IMG/VR virus record: IMGVR_UViG_2526164609_000022
Direction: 5' to 3' (one strand)
Length of the DNA stretch: 11,777 nt
From: a virus
Lineage: Duplodnaviria; Heunggongvirae; Uroviricota; Caudoviricetes
This document shows, in pieces, positions 1-11,038 of the stretch; positions within the stretch are counted from its first letter, which is position 1; each line of letters begins with the position of its first letter. The notes beneath the pieces are model-generated. The model did not search any database. It was not told the DNA's origin and saw nothing but the letters and a program-made list of their open reading frames with translations. Made by a program: the position numbers and the translations under genes.

Positions 1-1592
1 TTATTTATTGGTGAGTGCTACGTTCCATGGCAGGAGTTCGTCAACACGGTTGGAAGGCCATTCCGGCAGTACGCTCAGGATATAGCGCAGATACGCTTCC
101 GGATCGATACCGTTCAGTCGGCAGGTGCCGATCAGCCCGTACAGTAGCGCACCACGCTCTCCACCGTGATCGCTGCCGAAGAACATAAAGTTTTTCTTTC
201 CGAGACAGACTGCACGAAGCGCTCTTTCCGCGGCATTATTATCCGCCTCAGCCAGACCATCATCACTGAAGTTGCACAACGCAACCCAGTGCTTCCTGAT
301 ATACCGGAACGCATCTCTCAGACGGCATTTTTTCGATAACGTTGTTCTTTCTCCTGCATCAGCTTATACAGGGAAGTCAGTAGCGGTTTACTCTGCATTT
401 GCCTGACCGCCAGGCGTTCAGACACCGGCAACCCGCGTATTTCGTGCTCGATGGCGTACAGCTCACCGATTAGTTTCAGGGCTTCTTCCGCTGTCGCGCT
501 TTTGGTACTGATATATACATCGTGGACTTTGCGCCGCGCATGAGCCCAGCATCCTGCTTCCGTCAACGCGCCGCCTTCTCGTTCGGCACTGAACAGCCGA
601 TCGTAACCATTAAACGCATCTGCCTGCAGGATACCCCGGAAGGGACTAAGGTGCTGCTCCGGATGTTTACCCTGATGGTCCGGTGAGTAGGCGAACCAGA
701 CCGCCGGAGGCTCTGGCGAACCGGCATCCCTGTCATCCCGGACATACGTCCAGATATATCCTGTTTTCGCCTTCTTCCTGCCCGGTGCCAGCACTTTTAC
801 TGGTGTGTCATCAGTGTGAACTTTGCGGCTGTTCATCACATAACGGTACAGAGCATCATTCAGCGGCGTCATTAACTGGCAGCACGCGTCAACCCAGTTG
901 GAGAGTAATGCACGGCTCAGTTCGACACCCTGACGGGCAAAAATTTCACTCTGACGATACAGTGGCAGGTGTTCGCAGTATTTTCCCGTTAACACGCGGG
1001 CAAGTAACCCCGGGCCCGCGATACCACGCTCTATCGGACGGGATGGTGCCGGTGCTTCAACGATGCAGTCACATTTTGTACAGGCTTTTTTTACCCGTTC
1101 TGTGCGGATCACTTTCAGAGCGCTGCTCACCAGTTCCAGTTGTTCTGCGCTGACTTCCCCCAGATAATCCAGCTCACCGCCACACTCCGGGCAACAGCTT
1201 TCTTCTGGCTCCAGGCGATTTATTTCGCGGGGCAGATGCTCCGGTAACGGGCGACGATGACGAGACTGTCGCAACTGGCGGGGAACCTGCGGATCGTCTT
1301 CCCGCCCACTGTAACGATCACTGTCCTGTTCGCGTTGTTTCAGCAGGGCCTCAGCCTGTTCAACTTCACGACGCAGTTTTTCAGAACGGGTACCGAACAG
1401 CATCCGGCGCAGTTTTTCTATCTGAGCCCGCAGATGTTCTATTTCCCGTTCATCTTCTTCGATCTTTTCTTCGGCGCGGGCCAGTGCAGAGCGCAGGAAG
1501 GCCTCCGTCTCTTCAACCAGACTCAGTTGCTGGTCTTTCTGACGGAGCTGGCATTCCAGTTCTGCAATGCGAATGAGGTATTTTTGATTCAT
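1..1592 (-). pseudogene. tnpC: IS66-family transposase TnpC (orf3), frameshifted near the 3' end
   Basis: ORF 318..1592 (424 aa; CCPECGG motif, [20 protein letters not shown]) and ORF 1..279 (92 aa; DDGLAEADNN...[15 protein letters not shown]) are colinear with the N- and C-terminal parts of the intact 512-aa copy B TnpC. The frame changes inside the T6 (minus-strand A6) run at 328-333; adding one A restores ...RKKCRLRDAFRYIRKHWVALCNFSDDG..., matching copy B ...[23 protein letters not shown]. Confidence 0.85.
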
Positions 1593-1987: not shown

Positions 1988-2389
1988 GTGGGAACCAAAG
2001 TGTCAGATATGCAGAAAAATGTGAATCCCGGCAGGCGAAAAGGCTGCCCTAATTATCCTCCCGAATTTAAACAGCAGCTCGTTGCTGCCTCCTGTGAACC
2101 CGGGATATCCATCTCAAAACTTGCTCTTGAAAATGGCATTAACGCCAATCTGTTGTTCAAATGGCGACAACAATGGCGCGAGGGAAAGCTGCTATTACCT
2201 TCTTCAGAGAGCCCCCAGCTACTTCCTGTGACTCTCGATGCAGCTGCCGAACAGCCAGAATCGCTCGCAGAGGATCCGGAAACCCTCAGTATCAGCTGTG
2301 AGGTAACGTTCCGGCACGGGACGCTCCGCTTCAATGGCAATGTCAGCGAAAAGCTCCTGACTCTGCTGATACAGGAACTGAAGCGATGA
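1988..2389 (+). CDS. tnpA: IS66-family accessory protein TnpA (orf1)
   Basis: First ORF inside IS66 copy B. Its stop TGA overlaps the tnpB ATG (ATGA at 2386-2389). The ORF-track start is GTG at 1988; an in-frame ATG at 2009 (MQKNVNPG..) is an alternative start. Confidence 0.8.
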   Translation: MGTKVSDMQKNVNPGRRKGCPNYPPEFKQQLVAASCEPGISISKLALENGINANLLFKWRQQWREGKLLLPSSESPQLLPVTLDAAAEQPESLAEDPETLSISCEVTFRHGTLRFNGNVSEKLLTLLIQELKR

Positions 2390-2733
2390 TCCCGTTACCT
2401 TCCGGGACCAAAATTTGGCTGGTTGCCGGTATCACCGATATGAGAAATGGCTTCAACGGCCTGGCGGCAAAGGTGCAGACGACGCTGAAAGACGCTCCGA
2501 TGTCAGGTCACGTTTTTATCTTCCGTGGGCGTAATGGCAGTCAGGTAAAGCTCCTCTGGTCTACCGGCGATGGACTGTGTCTGCTGACCAAACGGCTGGA
2601 GCGCGGCCGCTTCGCCTGGCCGTCAGCCCGGGATGGCAAAGTGTTCCTCACACCGGCACAGCTGGCGATGCTCCTTGAAGGTATCGACTGGCGGCAGCCT
2701 AAAAGACTGCTTACGTCCCTGACTATGTTGTAA
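2386..2733 (+). CDS. tnpB: IS66-family accessory protein TnpB (orf2), 115 aa
   Basis: Typical IS66 Orf2 sequence and size (MIPLPSGTKIWLVAGITDMRNGFNGL..FIFRGRNG..DWRQPK), translationally coupled to tnpA. Confidence 0.9.
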   Translation: MIPLPSGTKIWLVAGITDMRNGFNGLAAKVQTTLKDAPMSGHVFIFRGRNGSQVKLLWSTGDGLCLLTKRLERGRFAWPSARDGKVFLTPAQLAMLLEGIDWRQPKRLLTSLTML

Positions 2734-2781
2734 GCCTCTTTATCCTGGTCGACGCTGAATGAGCCTGGTAATATACCCGGT

Positions 2782-4320
2782 ATGAGCAGCTCACTTCCTG
2801 ACGATATCAATGCACTGAAACGTCTCCTTGCCGAACAGGAGGCGCTGAACCGTGCCCTGCTGGAAAAGCTGAACGAGCGTGAACGCGAAATAGACCATCT
2901 GCAGGCACAGCTGGATAAGCTGCGCCGGATGAACTTCGGCAGCCGCTCCGAAAAAGTCTCCCGTCGTATCGCACAGATGGAAGCTGACCTGAAGGCACTT
3001 CAGAAAGAAAGTGATACCCTTACCGGTCGGGTTGACGACCCGGCCGTGCAGCGCCCGCTGCGTCAAACCCGCACCCGCAAACCGTTCCCCGAATCACTCC
3101 CCCGCGATGAAAAACGGCTGCTGCCGGCAGCGTCATGCTGCCCGGAATGTGGAGGCTCACTGAGCTATCCGGGTGAGGATGCCGCCGAACAGCTGGAGTT
3201 GATGCGCAGCGTCTTCCGGGTTATCCGGACTGTACGTGAAAAGCATGCCTGTACTCAGTGCGATGCCATCGTGCAGGCCCCCGCGCCTTCACGGCCCATC
3301 GAGCGGGGTATCGCAGGACCGGGGCTGCTGGCCCGCGTGCTGATCTCAAAGTATGCAGAGCACACCCCGCTGTACCGCCAGTCTGAAATGTACGGCCGCC
3401 AGGGCGTGGAGCTGAGTCGTTCACTGCTGTCGGGCTGGGTGGATGCATGCTGCCGGCTACTGTCACCGCTGGAAGAAGCGCTTCAGGACTATGTGCTGAC
3501 TGACGGTAAGCTCCATGCTGATGACACGCCTGTCCCGGTGCTGTTGCCAGGCAATAAGAAAACGAAGACCGGGCGGTTATGGACCTACGTTCGTGACGAC
3601 CGTAACGCCGGGTTAACGCTGGCGCCGGCGGTGTGGTTCGCTTACAGCCCGGACAGAAAAGGCATCCATCCGCAGACCCATCTTGCGGGGTTCAGTGGTG
3701 TACTGCAGGCGGATGCATACGCCGGGTTCAACGAGCTGTACCGGGATGGCCGGATAACGGAAGCCGCCTGTTGGGCTCACGCCCGCCGTAAAATCCACGA
3801 TGTGCACGTTCGCACCCCGTCAGCCCTGACGGAGGAAGCGCTGAAACGGATCGGCGAACTGTACGCCATCGAGGCAGAGATAAGGGGAATGACGGCGGAG
3901 CAGCGCCTTGCCGAACGTCAGTTGAAAACGAAACCGCTGCTGAAATCCCTGGAAAGCTGGCTGCGTGAAAAGATGAAAACCCTGTCGCGACACTCAGAAC
4001 TGGCGAAAGCGTTCGCATACGCCCTGAACCAGTGGCCGGCGCTGACGTACTATGCAGATGATGGCTGGGCTGAGGCGGACAATAACATCGCTGAAAATGC
4101 GTTGCGGATGGTCAGTCTGGGCCGCAAAAACTACCTGTTCTTCGGTTCGGATCATGGAGGAGAGCGGGGAGCGCTGCTGTACAGCCTGATCGGGACGTGC
4201 AAACTGAACGGAGTGGAGCCAGAAAGCTACCTCCGCTATGTACTTGACGTCATAGCCGACTGGCCGATAAACCGGGTCGGCGAACTGCTCCCCTGGCGCG
4301 TAGCACTGCCGACTGAATAA
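2782..4320 (+). CDS. tnpC: IS66-family DDE transposase TnpC (orf3), 512 aa, intact
   Basis: Uninterrupted 512-aa ORF with an N-terminal coiled-coil/leucine-zipper region, CCPECGG zinc-finger-like motif and conserved [33 protein letters not shown] blocks. Confidence 0.9.
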
Positions 4321-4709: not shown

Positions 4710-4934
4710 TCAACACACTGGCTGTAATGCAGCGGATACCATGCGGCATTTAGCGGCATTCATCGTACACTCAACGGTTAGCTCTTCATTCGTGGCATTC
4801 ACCTGAAAGGTCCGGGAGTGTAATTGCGTACATTTACCACTGAACGAACCTTCAACAAGAACACGACCACGCTGCAAAATACGGAACGGAATTGTTCCCT
4901 GAAAAGGCTTTACGGTTACCAGTAATTTCTTCAT
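4710..4934 (-). CDS. hypothetical small protein (74 aa, four Cys) immediately downstream of Rz; unassigned
   Basis: ATG at 4934 preceded by GGAG 5 nt upstream, 23 nt after the Rz stop, same strand as the lysis cassette. Product MKKLLVTVKPFQGTIPFRILQRGRVLVEGSFSGKCTQ... has no signal peptide or TM segment that I can see. Confidence 0.5.
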   Translation of the reverse strand: MKKLLVTVKPFQGTIPFRILQRGRVLVEGSFSGKCTQLHSRTFQVNATNEELTVECTMNAAKCRMVSAALQPVC

Positions 4935-4957
4935 GCATTCTCCGGATAACAAAAATA

Positions 4958-5431
4958 CTAGTTAATACACTGAGTGCGGATATATTCCTGCGCCCCTTCC
5001 AGTTGCTTCTGCATTGTCATCAACCGCTCTCTGAGGGTGAAATAATCCCGTTCAGCGGTGTCTGCCAGTCGGGGGCCGGTTGCATTATCCATTCCGGAGG
5101 TGCCGGTGGCTTCACGCACGGTACCGGAGCAGGTGGCGTTGATCCGCAGGCGCTTACGACCAGCGGCAACATCAGCACGCAGAGTTTCATTTTCAGCTCT
5201 CGCATCGGCTAATTCCCTTGAGTATCTGGCATCAAGCGCAGCAACATCACGCTGGCGCTGCTGCATGTCAGTAATGGTTGCGTTTGCCAGCTCCAGCTCT
5301 CTGGCTTTTTTATCGCGCTGCGCTTTGTAGGTGATGGCGTTATCACGGTAATGGTCTGTTGCCAGCCACAGCGCACCACAGACCACCAGCAGAATAACGG
5401 TAAACGCGGAAAGCATTCGGTTTATGTTCAC
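4958..5431 (-). CDS. rzpD: spanin inner-membrane subunit Rz (i-spanin)
   Basis: N-terminal TM segment then [62 protein letters not shown], as in lambda/DLP12 Rz. The GTG at 5431 overlaps the upstream ORF stop (GTGA); an in-frame ATG at 5416 (MLSAF..) is an equally plausible start. Symbol given as family name; a Qin-type paralog is equally possible. Confidence 0.85.
5020..5205 (-). CDS. rzoD: spanin outer-membrane lipoprotein Rz1 (o-spanin), embedded in the +1 frame of Rz
   Basis: 61-aa ORF entirely inside Rz in another frame. Lipobox LVVSAC followed by a proline-rich segment and C-terminal [13 protein letters not shown], matching lambda Rz1. Confidence 0.8.
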
Positions 5432-5559
5432 CCCAGCAGCCCCGACGAAGACAACATCATCCAGGCCATGGAAAGAAAAAGAGCAACCAGCATTAGTGAA
5501 AATGAAATGCCGACAATTACACAGAGGATCTTCGCCAGCGTTATGAGTTTGTCTGACAT
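5428..5559 (-). CDS. hypothetical 43-aa single-TM peptide (orfY) between endolysin and Rz; unassigned
   Basis: ATG at 5559 preceded by strong SD AAGGGAGGA. Product [43 protein letters not shown] is almost entirely one hydrophobic helix. Its stop TGA (5430-5428) overlaps the Rz GTG (5431-5429). Confidence 0.5.
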
Positions 5560-5573
5560 GCTTAATCCTCCCT

Positions 5574-5756
5574 TCACGATTTCAACGCAATGACCAGTTT
5601 TGCCAGCCCATACAGCATCGGGGACACAGCAACACCGACCGCCACCCACTTAATGGCAAAAGCCAGTGCTCTGCTGATGTCATCAGTTACAGGCGCTTTC
5701 AGTTCAAGGCCGTTTTTCATGGTCAACCTCAACAGAATTCGTTTATACTTCGCCAT
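5574..5756 (-). CDS. hypothetical 60-aa protein with basic N-terminus and hydrophobic C-terminal helix (orfX); unassigned
   Basis: ATG at 5756 preceded by SD AAGGGAGAA. Product [60 protein letters not shown]. Its stop lies inside the orfY ribosome-binding region (14 nt before the orfY ATG). Alternative starts are GTG 5789 and ATG 5720. Confidence 0.45.
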
Positions 5757-5789
5757 GTTCTCCCTTGCCTTACTCAAGGTCAGAAACAC

Positions 5790-5823
5790 AAAACCCCGCT
5801 TGGTGCCAACAAACGGGGTTTTT
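5790..5823. terminator. GC-stem hairpin flanked by A-run and T-run (AAAACCCCG-loop-CGGGGTTTTT), candidate bidirectional intrinsic terminator located between endolysin and orfX
   Basis: 5790-5798 AAAACCCCG and 5814-5822 CGGGGTTTT are reverse complements with a 15-nt loop. T-runs follow the stem on both strands (TTTTTACTTTT on plus, TTTTGTGTTT on minus). Confidence 0.5.
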
Positions 5824-5912
5824 ACTTTTATTCACTTACGTTTCGCCAGTTCGCAGGATTTCGTGTTATCCGTCCGCGTGCTCATGCCTTATTTTTCAGC
5901 AAAATATTCTGC

Positions 5913-6446
5913 TTATCTGTCGATGTCCCAGCACGCCAGCGCACTTTCCTGGTCTCGCCGGGATACCTGACCGTAGCAATTATTTGAGCGGATACGGCAG
6001 TCTCTGCCACCGTCCTTAATCCACCAGCGAATCGCTTCGCATGCTCCCCTGCGGTCACCAGCATTAATCCGTCTGTAAAACGTCGACGGGAAACACTTAC
6101 CGGGGCCAATGTTATAGGGACAAAATGACGCGATACCCGCTTTCTGGGGTTCGGTCAGCGGCACTTTAATATTGCGCTCCACCCATGCCAGCGCCTTATC
6201 ACGCTCAATGGCGTTGACCTGGTCGCATTTTTCCTTCGACAACTTCATGCCCGGGACGACAGGTTTACTATCCACCAGGATGGCACCGCGGCAGATGGTC
6301 CAGATACCCGCGCCATCACGGTATGCCGTGGTGTGGTTACCTTCCTTTTCATCCAGAAACTGGTCGAGGATTTCAGGCGCAGGCGCACCTGCGGCAATCA
6401 GCGCCAGAATGGCAGCCGACAGGCCGTATTTGATTTTGGTGTTCAT
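5913..6446 (-). CDS. rrrD: phage endolysin, GH24 lysozyme with N-terminal signal-anchor-release (SAR) segment, RrrD/RrrQ type
   Basis: 177-aa ORF MNTKIKYGLSAAILALIAAGAPAPEILDQFLDEKEGNHTTAYRDGAGIWTICRG.. has a Gly/Ala-rich weakly hydrophobic N-terminus followed by the catalytic E-D-T triad region typical of T4-lysozyme-like SAR endolysins. It closely resembles my recollection of the K-12 cryptic-prophage lysozymes. Confidence 0.9.
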   Translation of the reverse strand: MNTKIKYGLSAAILALIAAGAPAPEILDQFLDEKEGNHTTAYRDGAGIWTICRGAILVDSKPVVPGMKLSKEKCDQVNAIERDKALAWVERNIKVPLTEPQKAGIASFCPYNIGPGKCFPSTFYRRINAGDRRGACEAIRWWIKDGGRDCRIRSNNCYGQVSRRDQESALACWDIDR

Positions 6447-6496: not shown

Positions 6497-6841
6497 TCAG
6501 GCCAGCGGTGGAGTCTTCAGAGAACCAGTAATTATTCCCGGTAGTTTTCCTCTGTAGGTTATCAACACATCCTGCGCCTCTAAAATTACGGGGCGCTTTT
6601 CCGGCAACGGACCATCCCCTTCACATAACCCGGCAGCAACATCCATGAAAAACTGCTTCGCCTGCTTTTTCGCCTCAGCTTCGTAAAACTCCAGCGTGGC
6701 ATCTTCAGTACGGTCAAGACTAATCGCCACATCTGGCAACAACAGTGACGGATACCCACCAATTTCCAGTGCCACAGTAACAGTAATCTTATTCGGGTAA
6801 TTATTTATCCCTTTAACAACCAGTTCGTATTTTTTCTTCAT
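6497..6841 (-). CDS. ydfR: YdfR-like (DUF1327) protein wedged between holin and endolysin
   Basis: 114-aa ORF, ATG at 6841 with SD GGGGAGAG, starting 4 nt after the holin stop and ending 50 nt before the endolysin start. Its position matches ydfR between essQ and rrrQ in the K-12 Qin prophage as I recall it; the sequence-level assignment is unverified. Confidence 0.65.
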   Translation of the reverse strand: MKKKYELVVKGINNYPNKITVTVALEIGGYPSLLLPDVAISLDRTEDATLEFYEAEAKKQAKQFFMDVAAGLCEGDGPLPEKRPVILEAQDVLITYRGKLPGIITGSLKTPPLA

Positions 6842-6845
6842 CGCT

Positions 6846-7061
6846 TTACTCTCCCCACGCCGCCTTACGACGGTCCTCTCTGATTTTGAAATACAGGTTA
6901 GTCAGATATGTCAGCAGCCCAAACAACAGACTCCCCAGCACGCCTATTGCCGCCCACTGAGACGGGGAAACCCTGTCCAGCAACTGCAGGAACCAGTAGC
7001 CCGTTCCCACCGCTGACGTGGTGTATGACACACCTGTTGTGATTTTTTCCATCTGGTACAT
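6846..7061 (-). CDS. essD: class II holin (phage 21 S21-type pinholin) with dual-start motif
   Basis: 71-aa product [71 protein letters not shown] has two TM segments and a charged C-terminus. Met1 (7061) and Met4 (7052) give the holin/antiholin dual-start arrangement. Family name essD/essQ. Confidence 0.85.
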
Positions 7062-8353: not shown

Positions 8354-8857
8354 TTACTGATAGTGTTTTATGTTCAGATAATGCCCGATGACCTTGTCAT
8401 GCAGCTCCACCGATTTTGAGAACGACAGTGACTTCCGTCCCAGCCTTGCCAGATGTTGTCTCAGATTCAGATTATGTCGCTCAATGCGCTGAGTGTAACG
8501 CTTGCTGATAACGTGCAGCTTTCCCTTCAGGCGTGATTCATACAGCGGCCAGCCATCCGTCATCCATACCACGACCTCAAAGGCCGACAGCAGGCTCAGA
8601 AGACGCTCCAGTGTGGTCAGAGTGCGTTCACCGAAGACGTGCGCCACAACCGTCCTCCGTATCCTGTCATACGCGTAAAACAGCCAGCGCTGACGTGATT
8701 TAGCACCGACGTAGCCCCACTGTTCGTCCATTTCAGCGCAGACAATCACATCACTGCCCGGTTGTATGCGCGAGGTTACCGACTGCGGCCTGAGTTTTTT
8801 AAGTGACGTAAAACCGTGTTGAGGCCAACGCCCATAATGCGTGCACTGGCGCGACAT
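8354..8857 (-). CDS. insB: IS1 InsB frame (167 aa; expressed as the InsAB' fusion by -1 frameshifting)
   Basis: ..[64 protein letters not shown] matches IS1 InsB; overlaps the insA 3' end in the -1 frame. Confidence 0.9.
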
Positions 8858-9106: not shown

Positions 9107-9354
9107 CGCTCGACGAGTGGAAACCAAAACGGTTCAGTCTCCCAATAACAAACACTACCCTGGTGAAATACGGAAAACTAGGATACATCGTTCCAAGACC
9201 ACAAAAAATTCGTGGGCGTTGGCTGATAGATCGCCGAGCAGTATTTGTTGGGCCTGGTGAAACGGGAATTGCGCCGGAAATTCATACTGGCGATGATGAT
9301 GCACTGAAGGAGATTTTAACTCATGTCACCGAGGCCACGAAAAAACAGCACTGA
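9107..9354 (+). pseudogene. xis: lambda-type excisionase Xis, missing roughly its first 4 codons because IS1 is inserted at its 5' end
   Basis: In-frame translation from the IS1 boundary reads (P)LDEWKPKRFSLPITNTTLVKYGKLGYIVPRPQKIRGRWLIDRRAV.., which aligns with lambda Xis MYLTLQEWNARQRRPRSLETVRRWV..PPPVKDGREYLFHESAV. Its stop at 9352-9354 overlaps the int start at 9323 by 32 nt, as in the lambda xis-int arrangement. Confidence 0.65.
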
Positions 9355-9718
9355 CGTAGCCGGTCTTTACGAAAAGTTTGATCGCAGAACTGGCAGAGTT
9401 TACTACCAGTATAAAAATCCTGTGACTGGAAAATTTCACGGACTCGGAACAGACAAAGGTAAGGCAGAAAAAATCGCTTCCACAGCCAATCAGCGAATAG
9501 CTGCAGCAGAAGCTGAATATTTCATGCGCAAAATTGATGAAAGTCCGTCAGCAACAAAACGTCGGGGTATCAGATTAAAGGCATGGGTTGATCGATATCT
9601 GAAAATACAGGACACGCGACTGAAAAATGGAGATATTGCAGCTACAACTCACAAAGAAAAAACTCGAATGGCTGCATACCTGGTTTCCCGTCTGGGAAAC
9701 CACCCATTGAAAGAACTG
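9323..9718 (+). pseudogene. int: lambda-family tyrosine integrase, N-terminal arm-binding part (132 codons), interrupted by IS2
   Basis: MSPRPRKNSTDVAGLYEKFDRRTGRVYYQYKNPVTGKFHGLGTDK.. resembles the lambda Int N-terminal domain (..RRDLPPNLYIR..YYCYRDPRTGKEFGLGRD..). The frame runs straight into the IS2 left end, where TAG at 9719-9721 is the first triplet of IS2. Confidence 0.85.
9714..9718. repeat. left copy of the IS2 5-bp target-site duplication (AACTG)
   Basis: Identical pentamer immediately outside both IS2 ends. Confidence 0.85.
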
Positions 9719-9809
9719 TAGACTGGCCCCCTGAATCTCCAGACAACCAGTATCACTTAAATAAGTGATAGTCTTAATACTAGTTTTTAGACTAGTCATT
9801 GGAGTACAG

Positions 9810-10175
9810 ATGATTGATGTCTTAGGGCCGGAGAAACGCAGACGGCGTACCACACAGGAAAAGATCGCAATTGTTCAGCAGAGCTTTGAACCGGGGATGA
9901 CGGTCTCCCTCGTTGCCCGGCAACATGGTGTAGCAGCCAGCCAGTTATTTCTCTGGCGTAAGCAATACCAGGAAGGAAGTCTTACTGCTGTGGCCGCCGG
10001 AGAACAGGTTGTTCCTGCCTCTGAACTTGCTGCCGCCATGAAGCAGATTAAAGAACTCCAGCGCCTGCTCGGCAAGAAAACGATGGAAAATGAACTCCTC
10101 AAAGAAGCCGTTGAATATGGACGGGCAAAAAAGTGGATAGCGCACGCGCCCTTATTGCCCGGGGATGGGGAGTAA
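9810..10175 (+). CDS. insC: IS2 OrfA / InsC (121 aa)
   Basis: [56 protein letters not shown].. is the IS2 InsC sequence. The true ATG is at 9810; the ORF-track start at 9765 is an upstream extension. Confidence 0.9.
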
Positions 10176-11038
10176 GCTTAGTCAGCCGTTGTCTCCGGGT
10201 GTCGCGTGCGCAGTTGCACGTCATTCTCAGACGAACCGATGACTGGATGGATGGCCGCCGCAGTCGTCACACTGATGATACGGATGTGCTTCTCCGTATA
10301 CACCATGTTATCGGAGAGCTGCCCACGTATGGTTATCGTCGGGTATGGGCGCTGCTTCGCAGACAGGCAGAACTTGATGGTATGCCTGCGATCAATGCCA
10401 AACGTGTTTACCGGATCATGCGCCAGAATGCGCTGTTGCTTGAGCTAAAACCTGCTGTACCACCATCGAAACGGGCACATACAGGCAGAGTGGCCGTGAA
10501 AGAAAGCAATCAGCGATGGTGCTCTGACGGGTTCGAGTTCTGCTGTGATAACGGAGAGAGACTGCGTGTCACGTTCGCGCTGGACTGCTGTGATCGTGAG
10601 GCACTGCACTGGGCGGTGACTACCGGCGGCTTCAACAGTGAAACAGTACAGGACGTCATGCTGGGAGCGGTGGAACGCCGCTTCGGCAACGATCTTCCGT
10701 CGTCTCCAGTGGAGTGGCTGACGGATAATGGTTCATGCTACCGGGCTAATGAAACACGCCAGTTCGCCCGGATGTTGGGACTTGAACCGAAGAACACGGC
10801 GGTGCGGAGTCCGGAGAGTAACGGAATAGCAGAGAGCTTCGTGAAAACGATAAAGCGTGACTACATCAGTATCATGCCCAAACCAGACGGGTTAACGGCA
10901 GCAAAGAACCTTGCAGAGGCGTTCGAGCATTATAACGAATGGCATCCGCATAGTGCGCTGGGTTATCGCTCGCCACGGGAATATCTGCGGCAGCGGGCTT
11001 GTAATGGGTTAAGTGATAACAGATGTCTGGAAATATAG
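10133..11038 (+). CDS. insD: IS2 OrfB / InsD (301 aa), DDE transposase catalytic part
   Basis: Overlaps insC in the -1 frame as in IS2; 301 aa with the integrase-core DDE region (..[27 protein letters not shown]..). Confidence 0.9.

Follow-up and report, generated by a model that had tools for sequence, protein, structure and literature searches.

In phage P2 a non-essential membrane protein, LysA, is encoded between the endolysin gene K and the spanin genes LysB/LysC, and it has been reported to affect lysis timing. Canonical lambdoid lysis cassettes run from the endolysin gene R straight into the i-spanin gene Rz, as in the Escherichia coli K-12 prophages Qin and DLP12, where R overlaps Rz by 4 nucleotides (nt). 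The subject of this report is a lambdoid cassette in which R and Rz are instead separated by 481 base pairs (bp). It lies in the window, by which is meant the whole 11,777-nt stretch of viral DNA (Caudoviricetes) taken from IMG/VR record IMGVR_UViG_2526164609_000022. A first-pass annotation, made from the letters of the sequence, had noticed two small open reading frames (ORFs) and a terminator hairpin in the interval, and all three were found there, on the minus strand: the hairpin at 5790-5822, ORF1 at 5574-5756 and ORF2 at 5428-5559, between the R stop codon (5913-5915) and a GTG that is in frame with Rz (5431-5429). The analysis described below indicates that ORF1 and ORF2 are two independent, genuine genes for small, predicted inner-membrane proteins, located in a slot behind the endolysin gene. 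The favored reading, held at a probability of roughly 45%, is that the products are late-expressed inner-membrane accessories of lysis, with ORF2 acting as a translational coupler to Rz.

Within the window, neither the ORFs nor the hairpin stand out. Within 4 kb, 48 ORFs are 30 amino acids (aa) long or longer, so that ORFs of such a length arise readily by chance, and terminator-like sites are not enriched (4 found, with 2.6 expected in shuffled sequence). Because a single sequence does not rise beyond chance, the case for ORF1, ORF2 and the hairpin rests on conservation across genomes. The first-pass annotation could not place either peptide in a family, and catalogued families have now been found for both, although these carry no functional annotation and neither is a known lysis family. 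The 60-aa product of ORF1 (ATG 5756 to TGA 5574; RefSeq WP_001151823.1) aligns along its full length, residues 1-60, with positions 8-67 of the 67-position hidden Markov model (HMM) of phrog_1115 (E 2.6e-42); it also matches phrog_4493 (E 4.3e-30) and, with its C-terminal half only, phrog_3246. The 43-aa product of ORF2 (ATG 5559 to TGA 5428; RefSeq WP_001280932.1) is likewise aligned from residue 1 to residue 43 with positions 7-49 of the 49-position HMM of phrog_4906 (E 2.1e-23), the family that is also matched by a 48-aa ORF of Stx2 phages (E 2.6e-31).

The reading frame of ORF1 is intact in 250 surveyed places and that of ORF2 in 317. Nei-Gojobori estimates of the ratio of nonsynonymous to synonymous change (dN/dS) are lowest in the annotated frames: 0.41 for ORF1, versus 0.71 and 1.55 in the shifted frames, and 0.51 for ORF2 (0.09 within the group of the 933W type), versus 0.7-1.7. 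In the C-terminal half of ORF1, codon position 3 varies 2.5 times more than positions 1 and 2; synonymous variation was also examined for a reduction in the 5' half of the gene, which would hint at an antisense element overlapping it, but the difference was too small to use. In ORF2 the residues D3, K4, V14, V16, G17, S19 and F20 are invariant. It is on the strength of the PHROG families, the frames kept intact in hundreds of loci and the minimum of dN/dS in the annotated frame that the two ORFs are regarded as real genes.

The strong Shine-Dalgarno (SD) sites and the single hydrophobic helix predicted for each peptide in the first-pass annotation were both borne out. Directly 5' of ORF1, at 5757-5766 on the minus strand, the sequence reads AAGGGAGAAC, an SD site that is conserved in relatives, and the 14-nt spacer between ORF1 and ORF2 (5560-5573, minus strand) carries the SD region of ORF2, AGGGAGGATTAAGC, which includes AGGGAGG; the SD itself, GAAGGGAGGA, lies 6 nt 5' of the start codon. 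ORF2 encodes a micro-protein with a single predicted transmembrane (TM) segment (best 19-residue Kyte-Doolittle window 2.89, residues 11-29). ORF1 is less hydrophobic (1.88, residues 38-56); it begins with an N-terminal helix that is cationic and amphipathic, which a conserved MKNGLExxAP linker connects to a TM helix at the C-terminus. Its residues 1-13 have a hydrophobic moment of 0.56-0.63, and AlphaFold models helices at residues 2-15 and 22-59 joined by a loop, with a per-residue confidence (pLDDT) of 87-90 over residues 31-60; since the model consists of two helices only, no fold search was carried out. A second in-frame start codon of ORF1, Met13 (5720), has its own GAGG site, and the corresponding 48-aa form is the one listed in many databases, so two translation products, of 60 and 48 aa, are possible.

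The two families differ in breadth. A profile search with ORF1 against 1.84 billion representative proteins returned only 20 matches, all of them small uncharacterized proteins; the remote homologues keep the pattern xY[KR][KR]xFxxRL[ST]MK[ND]GLExxAP, followed by a TM segment and an ending of RWW or LK. A scan of genome contigs with the ORF1 alignment gave no confirmed locus. The profile search with ORF2 yielded 234 matches, all hypothetical proteins of Enterobacteriaceae. By tblastn, ORF2 was found just 5' of Rz in 276 phage records, mostly of Stx (Shiga toxin)-converting phages and with 933W among them, and ORF1 in 14. Neither ORF has a homologue in the K-12 prophages.

The arrangement had been taken for an unusual one, and in this respect the first-pass annotation did not hold: the finding is real but common and already catalogued in E. 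coli lambdoid prophages. A 541-bp region of this locus was detected in 2,135 of 5,426 complete E. coli genomes; at least 80% of the region is present in 989, usually in several prophages each, and ORF1 and ORF2 occur together in 989 of the 5,426. RefSeq/PGAP annotates both ORFs as coding sequences for a 'hypothetical protein'.

One piece of published expression evidence exists, and it concerns a homologue of ORF2. The gene is ECs_1966 (RefSeq), also named XECs191, in prophage Sp10 of E. coli O157:H7 Sakai; its product is 67% identical to ORF2, and it is located between an antirepressor gene and Rz. XECs191 is among 465 intergenic ORFs with a ribosome-profiling (RIBOseq) signal and was predicted to encode an inner-membrane protein with one TM segment (Hucker et al. 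2017, PMC5597208). In LB its transcriptome and translatome values were 30.0 and 12.6 reads per kilobase per million (RPKM), with a ribosome coverage value (RCV) of 0.43 and a coverage of 0.55 (PMC5597208). ORF1 is absent from the same Sakai catalogue of small ORFs (PMC5597208). A literature search on both peptides, their accessions, genes between R and Rz, and anti-spanins or spanin regulators turned up nothing relevant beyond that catalogue, and a survey of the lysis cassettes of Stx phages (PMC8136144) has no mention of either ORF.

More than 340 loci were collected in a survey that was seeded with matches to ORF1 and ORF2, so that the frequencies given here are not unbiased. About 150 of the surveyed loci have the order of the window, S-(YdfR)-R-ORF1-ORF2-Rz, and about 75, of the type found in Stx phages including 933W, have S-(YdfR)-R-Ant-ORF2-Rz. 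A further 70 loci resemble phage phiP27 and carry, in this order, Phage_holin_8, Phage_holin_3_7, a GH108 or M15 endolysin, ORF1, ORF2 and a 60-aa lipoprotein; these cassettes are unrelated to the lambdoid type and are without a lambda-type Rz. Rare arrangements include R-ORF1-Rz, R-(70 aa)-ORF2-(38-aa C-terminal half of ORF1)-Rz and M15-(93 aa)-(ORF1-like)-lipoprotein, and in a prophage remnant of Yersinia enterocolitica the ORF1 homologue ends 2 nt before Rz. The accessory 'pair' proposed in the first-pass annotation is therefore not an obligate one: ORF1 is missing beside ORF2 in about 75 loci and throughout the Stx phages, in which ORF2 comes after the antirepressor gene, and ORF1-family genes occur without ORF2. 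The two genes are thus separable, with ORF2 by far the more widespread.

Elsewhere, the slot behind the endolysin gene is occupied by an antirepressor gene, by LT-IIb enterotoxin genes, or by an ORF of 70 or 93 aa, and this position is a hot spot for recombination and cargo. The enterotoxin genes are seen in phage SerU-LTIIb (surveyed locus L348, 4943-6368), directly 3' of the endolysin gene. Searches by tblastn with the 933W Ant protein identified Ant and ORF1 as alternative occupants of the slot that never overlap. The hairpin-ORF1 module alternates with the ant module and is in this sense a discrete unit, present or absent between conserved neighbors, as a moron is. Several side observations concern the borders of ORF2. 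Chimeric arrangements were met with (L086:827-1077, L144 and the entries P0093 and P0114). In one, the GGGGTGA junction at the end of ORF2 leads into the C-terminal half of ORF1 (38 aa, initiated at GTG), and in others database proteins run from ORF2, by a frameshift, into the C-terminus of ORF1. The 3' end of ORF2 looks like a recombination joint. In the RefSeq entry of 933W (L084, NC_000924), the ORF2 homologue (44-48 aa, 3425-3577) lies unannotated between ant and Rz, and many entries for Stx-converting phages likewise have 'none' as annotation at the tblastn match to ORF2.

The lipoprotein gene of the phiP27-like cassettes begins no more than 5 nt past ORF2 or the ORF1-like gene (L320:3340-3522; L085:2655-2837) and belongs to phrog_7528, an uncharacterized family. 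Its 60-aa product combines a lipobox, LLVGC, with a mature part of 30 aa that contains three Cys, and is like Rz1 or a colicin lysis protein in size; a Pfam search found no match. This lipoprotein might be the route by which phiP27-like phages breach the outer membrane.

The hairpin was detected by a terminator scan as an element at 5780-5826 on the minus strand, with the stem-loop at 5790-5822 and a folding energy of -18.9 kcal/mol. It reads AAAACCCCGTTTG-TTGGCAC-CAAGCGGGGTTTT, followed by GTGTTTCT, and has the structure of an intrinsic terminator: a 13-bp stem with 6 GC pairs, a 7-nt loop and the tail TTTTGTGTTTCT. An A-tract flanks it on the other side, so that on the plus strand TTTTTACTTTTATT comes after the stem; the hairpin looks bidirectional and could terminate transcription from either side. 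Relatives show at least four variants, with both arms of the inner stem changed (GTTTG/CAAGC, GGCTG/CAG(T)CC, GATTG/CAGTC and GAACG/CGATC), all of which fold at -12 to -21.6 kcal/mol. The element is always found just 5' of ORF1-family genes. The spacer between R and ant in 933W matches the window after R only until the start of the hairpin, and GH108-type cassettes have nothing in common with the window upstream, yet they contain the hairpin, the SD site and ORF1. These comparisons place the hairpin within the ORF1 module, with the module boundary just 5' of it. A remote metagenomic homologue of ORF1 (59 aa; L351:230-740) also has a terminator hairpin at its 5' side, and after it come a second hairpin and a 46-aa paralogue with the same IRWW ending, that is, tandem units of a hairpin and a small TM gene. 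A search of Rfam with the hairpin returned only a sub-threshold match to the rimP leader (25.6 bits, compared to a gathering score of 47).

At the other end of the interval, the TGA of ORF2 (5430-5428) overlaps the in-frame GTG of the Rz ORF (5431-5429) in the sequence GTGA, and the last codons of ORF2, CTGCTGGGGTGA, hold both an SD-like run of G residues and the overlapping GTG. The coupling to Rz through GTGA that the first-pass annotation had suggested was upheld in that the overlap is present and ORF2 is tightly linked to the start of Rz; the GTG, however, is only one of two possible starts. RefSeq/PGAP places the start of Rz at ATG 5416, 12 nt past the ORF2 stop. Relatives of the Stx type have an Rz ATG (ATG AAC CGT...) 8 nt past the ORF2 stop, where the allele of the window has ATA (ATA AAC CGA...); with that ATG replaced, Rz must start here either at GTG 5431 (MNINRML) or at ATG 5416. 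The start of Rz in this allele is therefore ambiguous, and GTGA coupling is plausible, not certain.

The proximity of ORF2 to the next gene is more general than the GTGA overlap. All 62 distinct contexts show a distance of 0-12 nt between the ORF2 stop and the start codon that follows, whether this belongs to Rz or, in phiP27-like cassettes, to the gene for the 60-aa lipoprotein. ORF2 ends in GGTGGGG-TGA or in GGTGGA-TAG, either of which provides a purine-rich ribosome-binding site for the next gene. In single-sequence folds the Rz start region pairs with codons internal to ORF2 (z = -1.96).

The favored reading can be put together from these elements as follows. No sigma-70-like promoter was found by a consensus scan of the minus strand between R and ORF1, and a conserved terminator sits just 5' of ORF1; for these reasons ORF1 and ORF2 would most likely be transcribed only within the Q-antiterminated late transcript, at the time of lysis. 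Terminator-resistant, Q-modified polymerase would be the only form of the enzyme to reach ORF1, ORF2 and Rz, and the hairpin would shield the lysogen from stray read-through. ORF1 with its 5' hairpin would be a swappable cargo module of the slot. ORF2, by contrast, would be the fixed 5' neighbor of the spanin gene, its last codons forming that gene's ribosome-binding site. Given a stop codon 0-12 nt from the next start and a ribosome-binding site in the last codons, ribosomes that end ORF2 can be expected to pass translation on to Rz, which would restore the coupling that exists between R and Rz in phages without an insert. The purifying selection on the peptide argues that ORF2 probably also acts in the inner membrane. 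The two proteins would then most likely be non-essential accessories of envelope disruption, touching either lysis timing or spanin function. A lysis role is favored by the location in a late operon behind a terminator, by the joining of ORF2 to the spanin gene, and by the predicted site in the inner membrane, where holins, SAR (signal-anchor-release) endolysins and i-spanins also reside. It is further favored by the recurrence of the ORF1 and ORF2 families just 5' of Rz or of a small lipoprotein gene in three unrelated cassette types.

Several points weigh on the other side. Neither ORF is homologous to holins, antiholins, spanins, releasin or any family of known function in Pfam, NCBIfam, PADLOC, PHROG or the profile searches. 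The antirepressor and LT-IIb toxin genes are plain cargo in the same slot, so that position alone implies no lysis role, and the holin of this cassette already has its own dual-start motif. The rule that ORF2 always stands beside Rz is biased by the seeded collection of loci. A consensus fold of the ORF2/Rz junction over three types showed no conserved structure, and coupling is for this reason treated as termination-reinitiation by proximity rather than as a structural switch. The RIBOseq signal of XECs191 is weak and came from uninduced cultures, and Sakai holds several near-identical prophages. The prophage of the window is riddled with insertion sequences (ISs), and the cassette is probably silent in that genome. 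For either protein, we infer the role in lysis from sequence and context.

Four other explanations deserve consideration. ORF1, perhaps along with ORF2, could be lysogenic-conversion cargo (a moron), that is, a membrane protein expressed from the prophage that serves, for instance, in superinfection exclusion or envelope modification and whose gene just happens to occupy the insertion hot spot behind the endolysin gene. The unrelated cargo that relatives carry in the slot fits this proposal, as does the travel of ORF1 and its hairpin as a unit across unrelated cassettes. The RIBOseq reads of the Sakai ORF2 homologue in uninduced cultures would also fit, but spontaneously induced cells can give such reads. 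Since the coding strand upstream has no sigma-70-like promoter (by the consensus scan only), the terminator is 5' of ORF1 and not 3' as in classic morons, and ORF2 is tightly joined to Rz, the moron explanation is judged unlikely. It is harder still to believe that ORF2 is a mere translated leader with a functionless peptide, which hands ribosomes on to Rz where an insertion has disrupted the overlap of R and Rz. This would account for the occurrence of ORF2 only where the R-Rz interval is occupied and never with a direct R/Rz overlap, for the distance of at most 12 nt from stop to start with an SD site inside the last codons, and for the overlap of the ORF2 start with the ant stop in Stx phages. 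A functionless peptide would not, however, be expected to have a dN/dS of 0.09 (933W-type group) and seven invariant residues, which indicate selection on the peptide, nor to precede a different gene, that of the phrog_7528 lipoprotein, in other cassettes.

An arrangement like that of a type I toxin-antitoxin system also seems improbable, somewhat more so than the leader. In this scheme ORF1 would encode a toxic membrane peptide, and an antisense RNA of about 75 nt, running from a plus-strand promoter at 5720-5749 to the hairpin near 5830, would start opposite the ORF1 start codon and mask its SD site and start in the lysogen, much as in P22 sar/ant and symE/symR. The candidate promoter, TGGTCA-18-TATACT, was found by a consensus scan (9/12), is antisense to ORF1 and points at the hairpin, behind which the plus strand has a good T-tract; the fold of the putative RNA has z = -2.39, and ORF1-family genes, the remote metagenomic homologue included, always have the hairpin at their 5' end. 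The -35/-10 geometry is kept in the divergent locus L085 (50% aa identity), where the site is TGGACA-18-TATACT, and some alleles have a perfect TATAAT. Promoter-like sites are nevertheless at chance level (2 found versus 2.2 expected in shuffled sequence), and the hexamers fall within the conserved codons for K-Y-K and L-T-M, so that coding constraint explains their conservation; in the remote homologue L351 the -10 element is degraded to TACGGT. The Rfam match of the hairpin is a chance one, no Pfam toxin family matches, and no small RNA has been reported at the locus in the searchable literature. Finally, chance often produces ORFs of this size, and chimeric ORF2-ORF1 fusions and partial copies exist, which would be in keeping with chance ORFs or with what is left of a larger, decayed gene, an antirepressor gene for example. 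The first-pass annotation had named decay as an outcome to look for. It was looked for and is not the case: there is no likeness to Ant and no match in Pfam, NCBIfam or PADLOC, both ORFs have strong SD sites, and hundreds of loci, spanning about 20-25% synonymous divergence, keep the frames intact and show purifying selection on them. The PHROG matches, the intact frames and the dN/dS values essentially refute this explanation already.

A number of specific identities were also considered. Scans of both peptides against Pfam, NCBIfam and PADLOC gave no match, the best Pfam hit being DUF3930 at a sub-threshold E of 0.08. For holins, neither ORF has a Pfam holin match at E values up to 1, and no PHROG annotated for lysis was matched. 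The type I toxin families (Hok/Gef, Ldr, TisB and others) are likewise without a match in Pfam, NCBIfam and PADLOC. An i-spanin was rejected: ORF2 continues for about 10 residues past its TM segment and ORF1 for 2, and there is no Phage_lysis match. An o-spanin or other lipoprotein was rejected as well, ORF1 having no Cys and the single Cys of ORF2 (AKILC) being off the pattern L-[ASTVI]-[GAS]-C. A releasin for SAR endolysins does not fit, because the ORFs also accompany M15 endolysins and GH108 endolysins, the latter with a visibly soluble N-terminus, and a remnant of Ant was dismissed on the lack of a Pfam match to Ant or KilA-N/Bro.

The cassette around the interval is of the holin-endolysin-Rz/Rz1 kind, as the first-pass annotation had it, and Pfam supports each gene assignment. 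All of its genes are on the minus strand, in the 5' to 3' order holin, YdfR, lysozyme R, the 481-bp interval, and Rz with embedded Rz1. The holin (71 aa, 6846-7061) is of class II, the S type of phage 21 (Phage_holin_2_1, E 1.9e-32), with a 216-bp RefSeq homologue named 'class II holin family protein'; its N-terminus, MYQMEK, offers two candidate start codons, M1 and M4. Between the holin and lysozyme genes lies a gene for a 114-aa YdfR-family protein (6497-6841; DUF1327, E 2.4e-45; phrog_406), in the position that ydfR has in K-12 Qin, and this is another conserved but uncharacterized lysis-cassette gene. R (177 aa, 5913-6446) matches Phage_lysozyme (E 2.8e-24), and its hydrophobic N-terminal sequence, considered with the published cassette survey (PMC8136144), suggests a SAR endolysin of the phage 21 type. 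Rz (4958-5431; Phage_lysis, E 7.1e-50) has 157 aa when counted from GTG 5431 and 152 aa from ATG 5416, and the o-spanin lipoprotein Rz1 (5020-5205; Pfam Rz1, E 1.5e-19) lies inside it in the +1 frame.

The surroundings mark the window as a degraded, defective prophage of E. coli type. On the 3' side of Rz is a minus-strand ORF of 74-80 aa (4710-4952; MKKLLVTVKPFQGTIPFRILQRGR...), which is also kept 3' of a phiP27-type cassette (L320:3696-3920) and whose match to phrog_2571 (291 aa, function not known) is confined to the middle part of that family. ISs and an integrase fragment account for 318-1592 (-), 1988-4320 (+), 8354-8857 (-), 10133-11038 (+) and 9323-9721 (+). IS66 is represented just 3' of the cassette by a partial transposase and by one complete unit (HTH_Tnp_1, TnpB_IS66 and a 512-aa DDE transposase), and the DUF6645 gene upstream of the holin is interrupted by an IS1 transposase. 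Farther along are an IS3-type integrase-core transposase and an arm-binding fragment of a lambda integrase. The cassette has probably been cut off from its late promoter in the window.

A bolder proposal, which is doubtful at present, is that ORF1 and ORF2 represent an unrecognized class of spanin-associated micro-proteins that are co-translated with Rz and tune or gate the outer-membrane step of lysis. If this were true, the micro-proteins could, for example, hold the i-spanin inactive or set its dosage, and most Stx-converting phages would carry them in their lysis cassettes, as would prophages in over one third of sequenced E. coli genomes. The phiP27-like cassettes, which lack Rz/Rz1, pair ORF1 and ORF2 with the phrog_7528 lipoprotein, which might be a spanin-independent route of outer-membrane disruption. 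Lysis by Stx-converting phages controls the release of Shiga toxin, and any effect of the micro-proteins on lysis timing or spanin dosage would make the holin-endolysin-spanin picture of these clinically important cassettes incomplete; if there is no such effect, they simply add to the small cargo genes of a known recombination hot spot. In both cases there are consequences for annotation: ORF2 should be annotated in Stx phages, the start of Rz should be treated as ambiguous in this allele, and the hairpin goes with ORF1.

Among known systems, P2 LysA is the closest precedent, by position only: like ORF1 and ORF2, it is a membrane protein encoded in a late lysis operon between the endolysin and i-spanin genes. 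There is no sequence relationship, and LysA is much larger, with several TM segments, whereas ORF1 and ORF2 have 60 and 43 aa and one TM segment each. The dual-start holin/antiholin proteins (S105/S107 of lambda, S68/S71 of phage 21) are also small inner-membrane proteins of lysis cassettes, and ORF1 resembles them further in having two in-frame starts with SD sites (Met1 and Met13), the longer form carrying four additional positive charges. Unlike them, ORF1 has no Pfam holin match, a single C-terminal TM segment and almost no periplasmic tail. With the Rz/Rz1 spanins there is a likeness of arrangement, in that ORF2 adjoins Rz and the succession of ORF2 and lipoprotein in phiP27-like cassettes mimics the order of a TM protein followed by a lipoprotein, but the parts that follow the TM segments (about 10 residues in ORF2, 2 in ORF1) are too short to span the periplasm, and neither ORF has a lipobox.

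The type I toxins (hok/sok, symE/symR) and P22 sar/ant share with ORF1 a small hydrophobic peptide and, possibly, an antisense promoter and terminator over the SD site and start codon. They differ from it in that there is no homology, the antisense RNA at ORF1 is putative, the TM segment of ORF1 is C-terminal rather than N-terminal, and the gene lies within a late operon. The lambdoid morons (bor, lom and stx, with ant and LT-II in the very same slot) are similar to the ORF1 module as mobile, terminator-flanked units in an insertion hot spot, and dissimilar in that no promoter of its own was detected for the module by the consensus scan and that its terminator lies upstream rather than downstream. 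A close counterpart of ORF2 is XECs191/ECs_1966 of Sakai, a homologue that is likewise located directly 5' of Rz and predicted to lie in the inner membrane, but with an antirepressor gene taking the place of ORF1.

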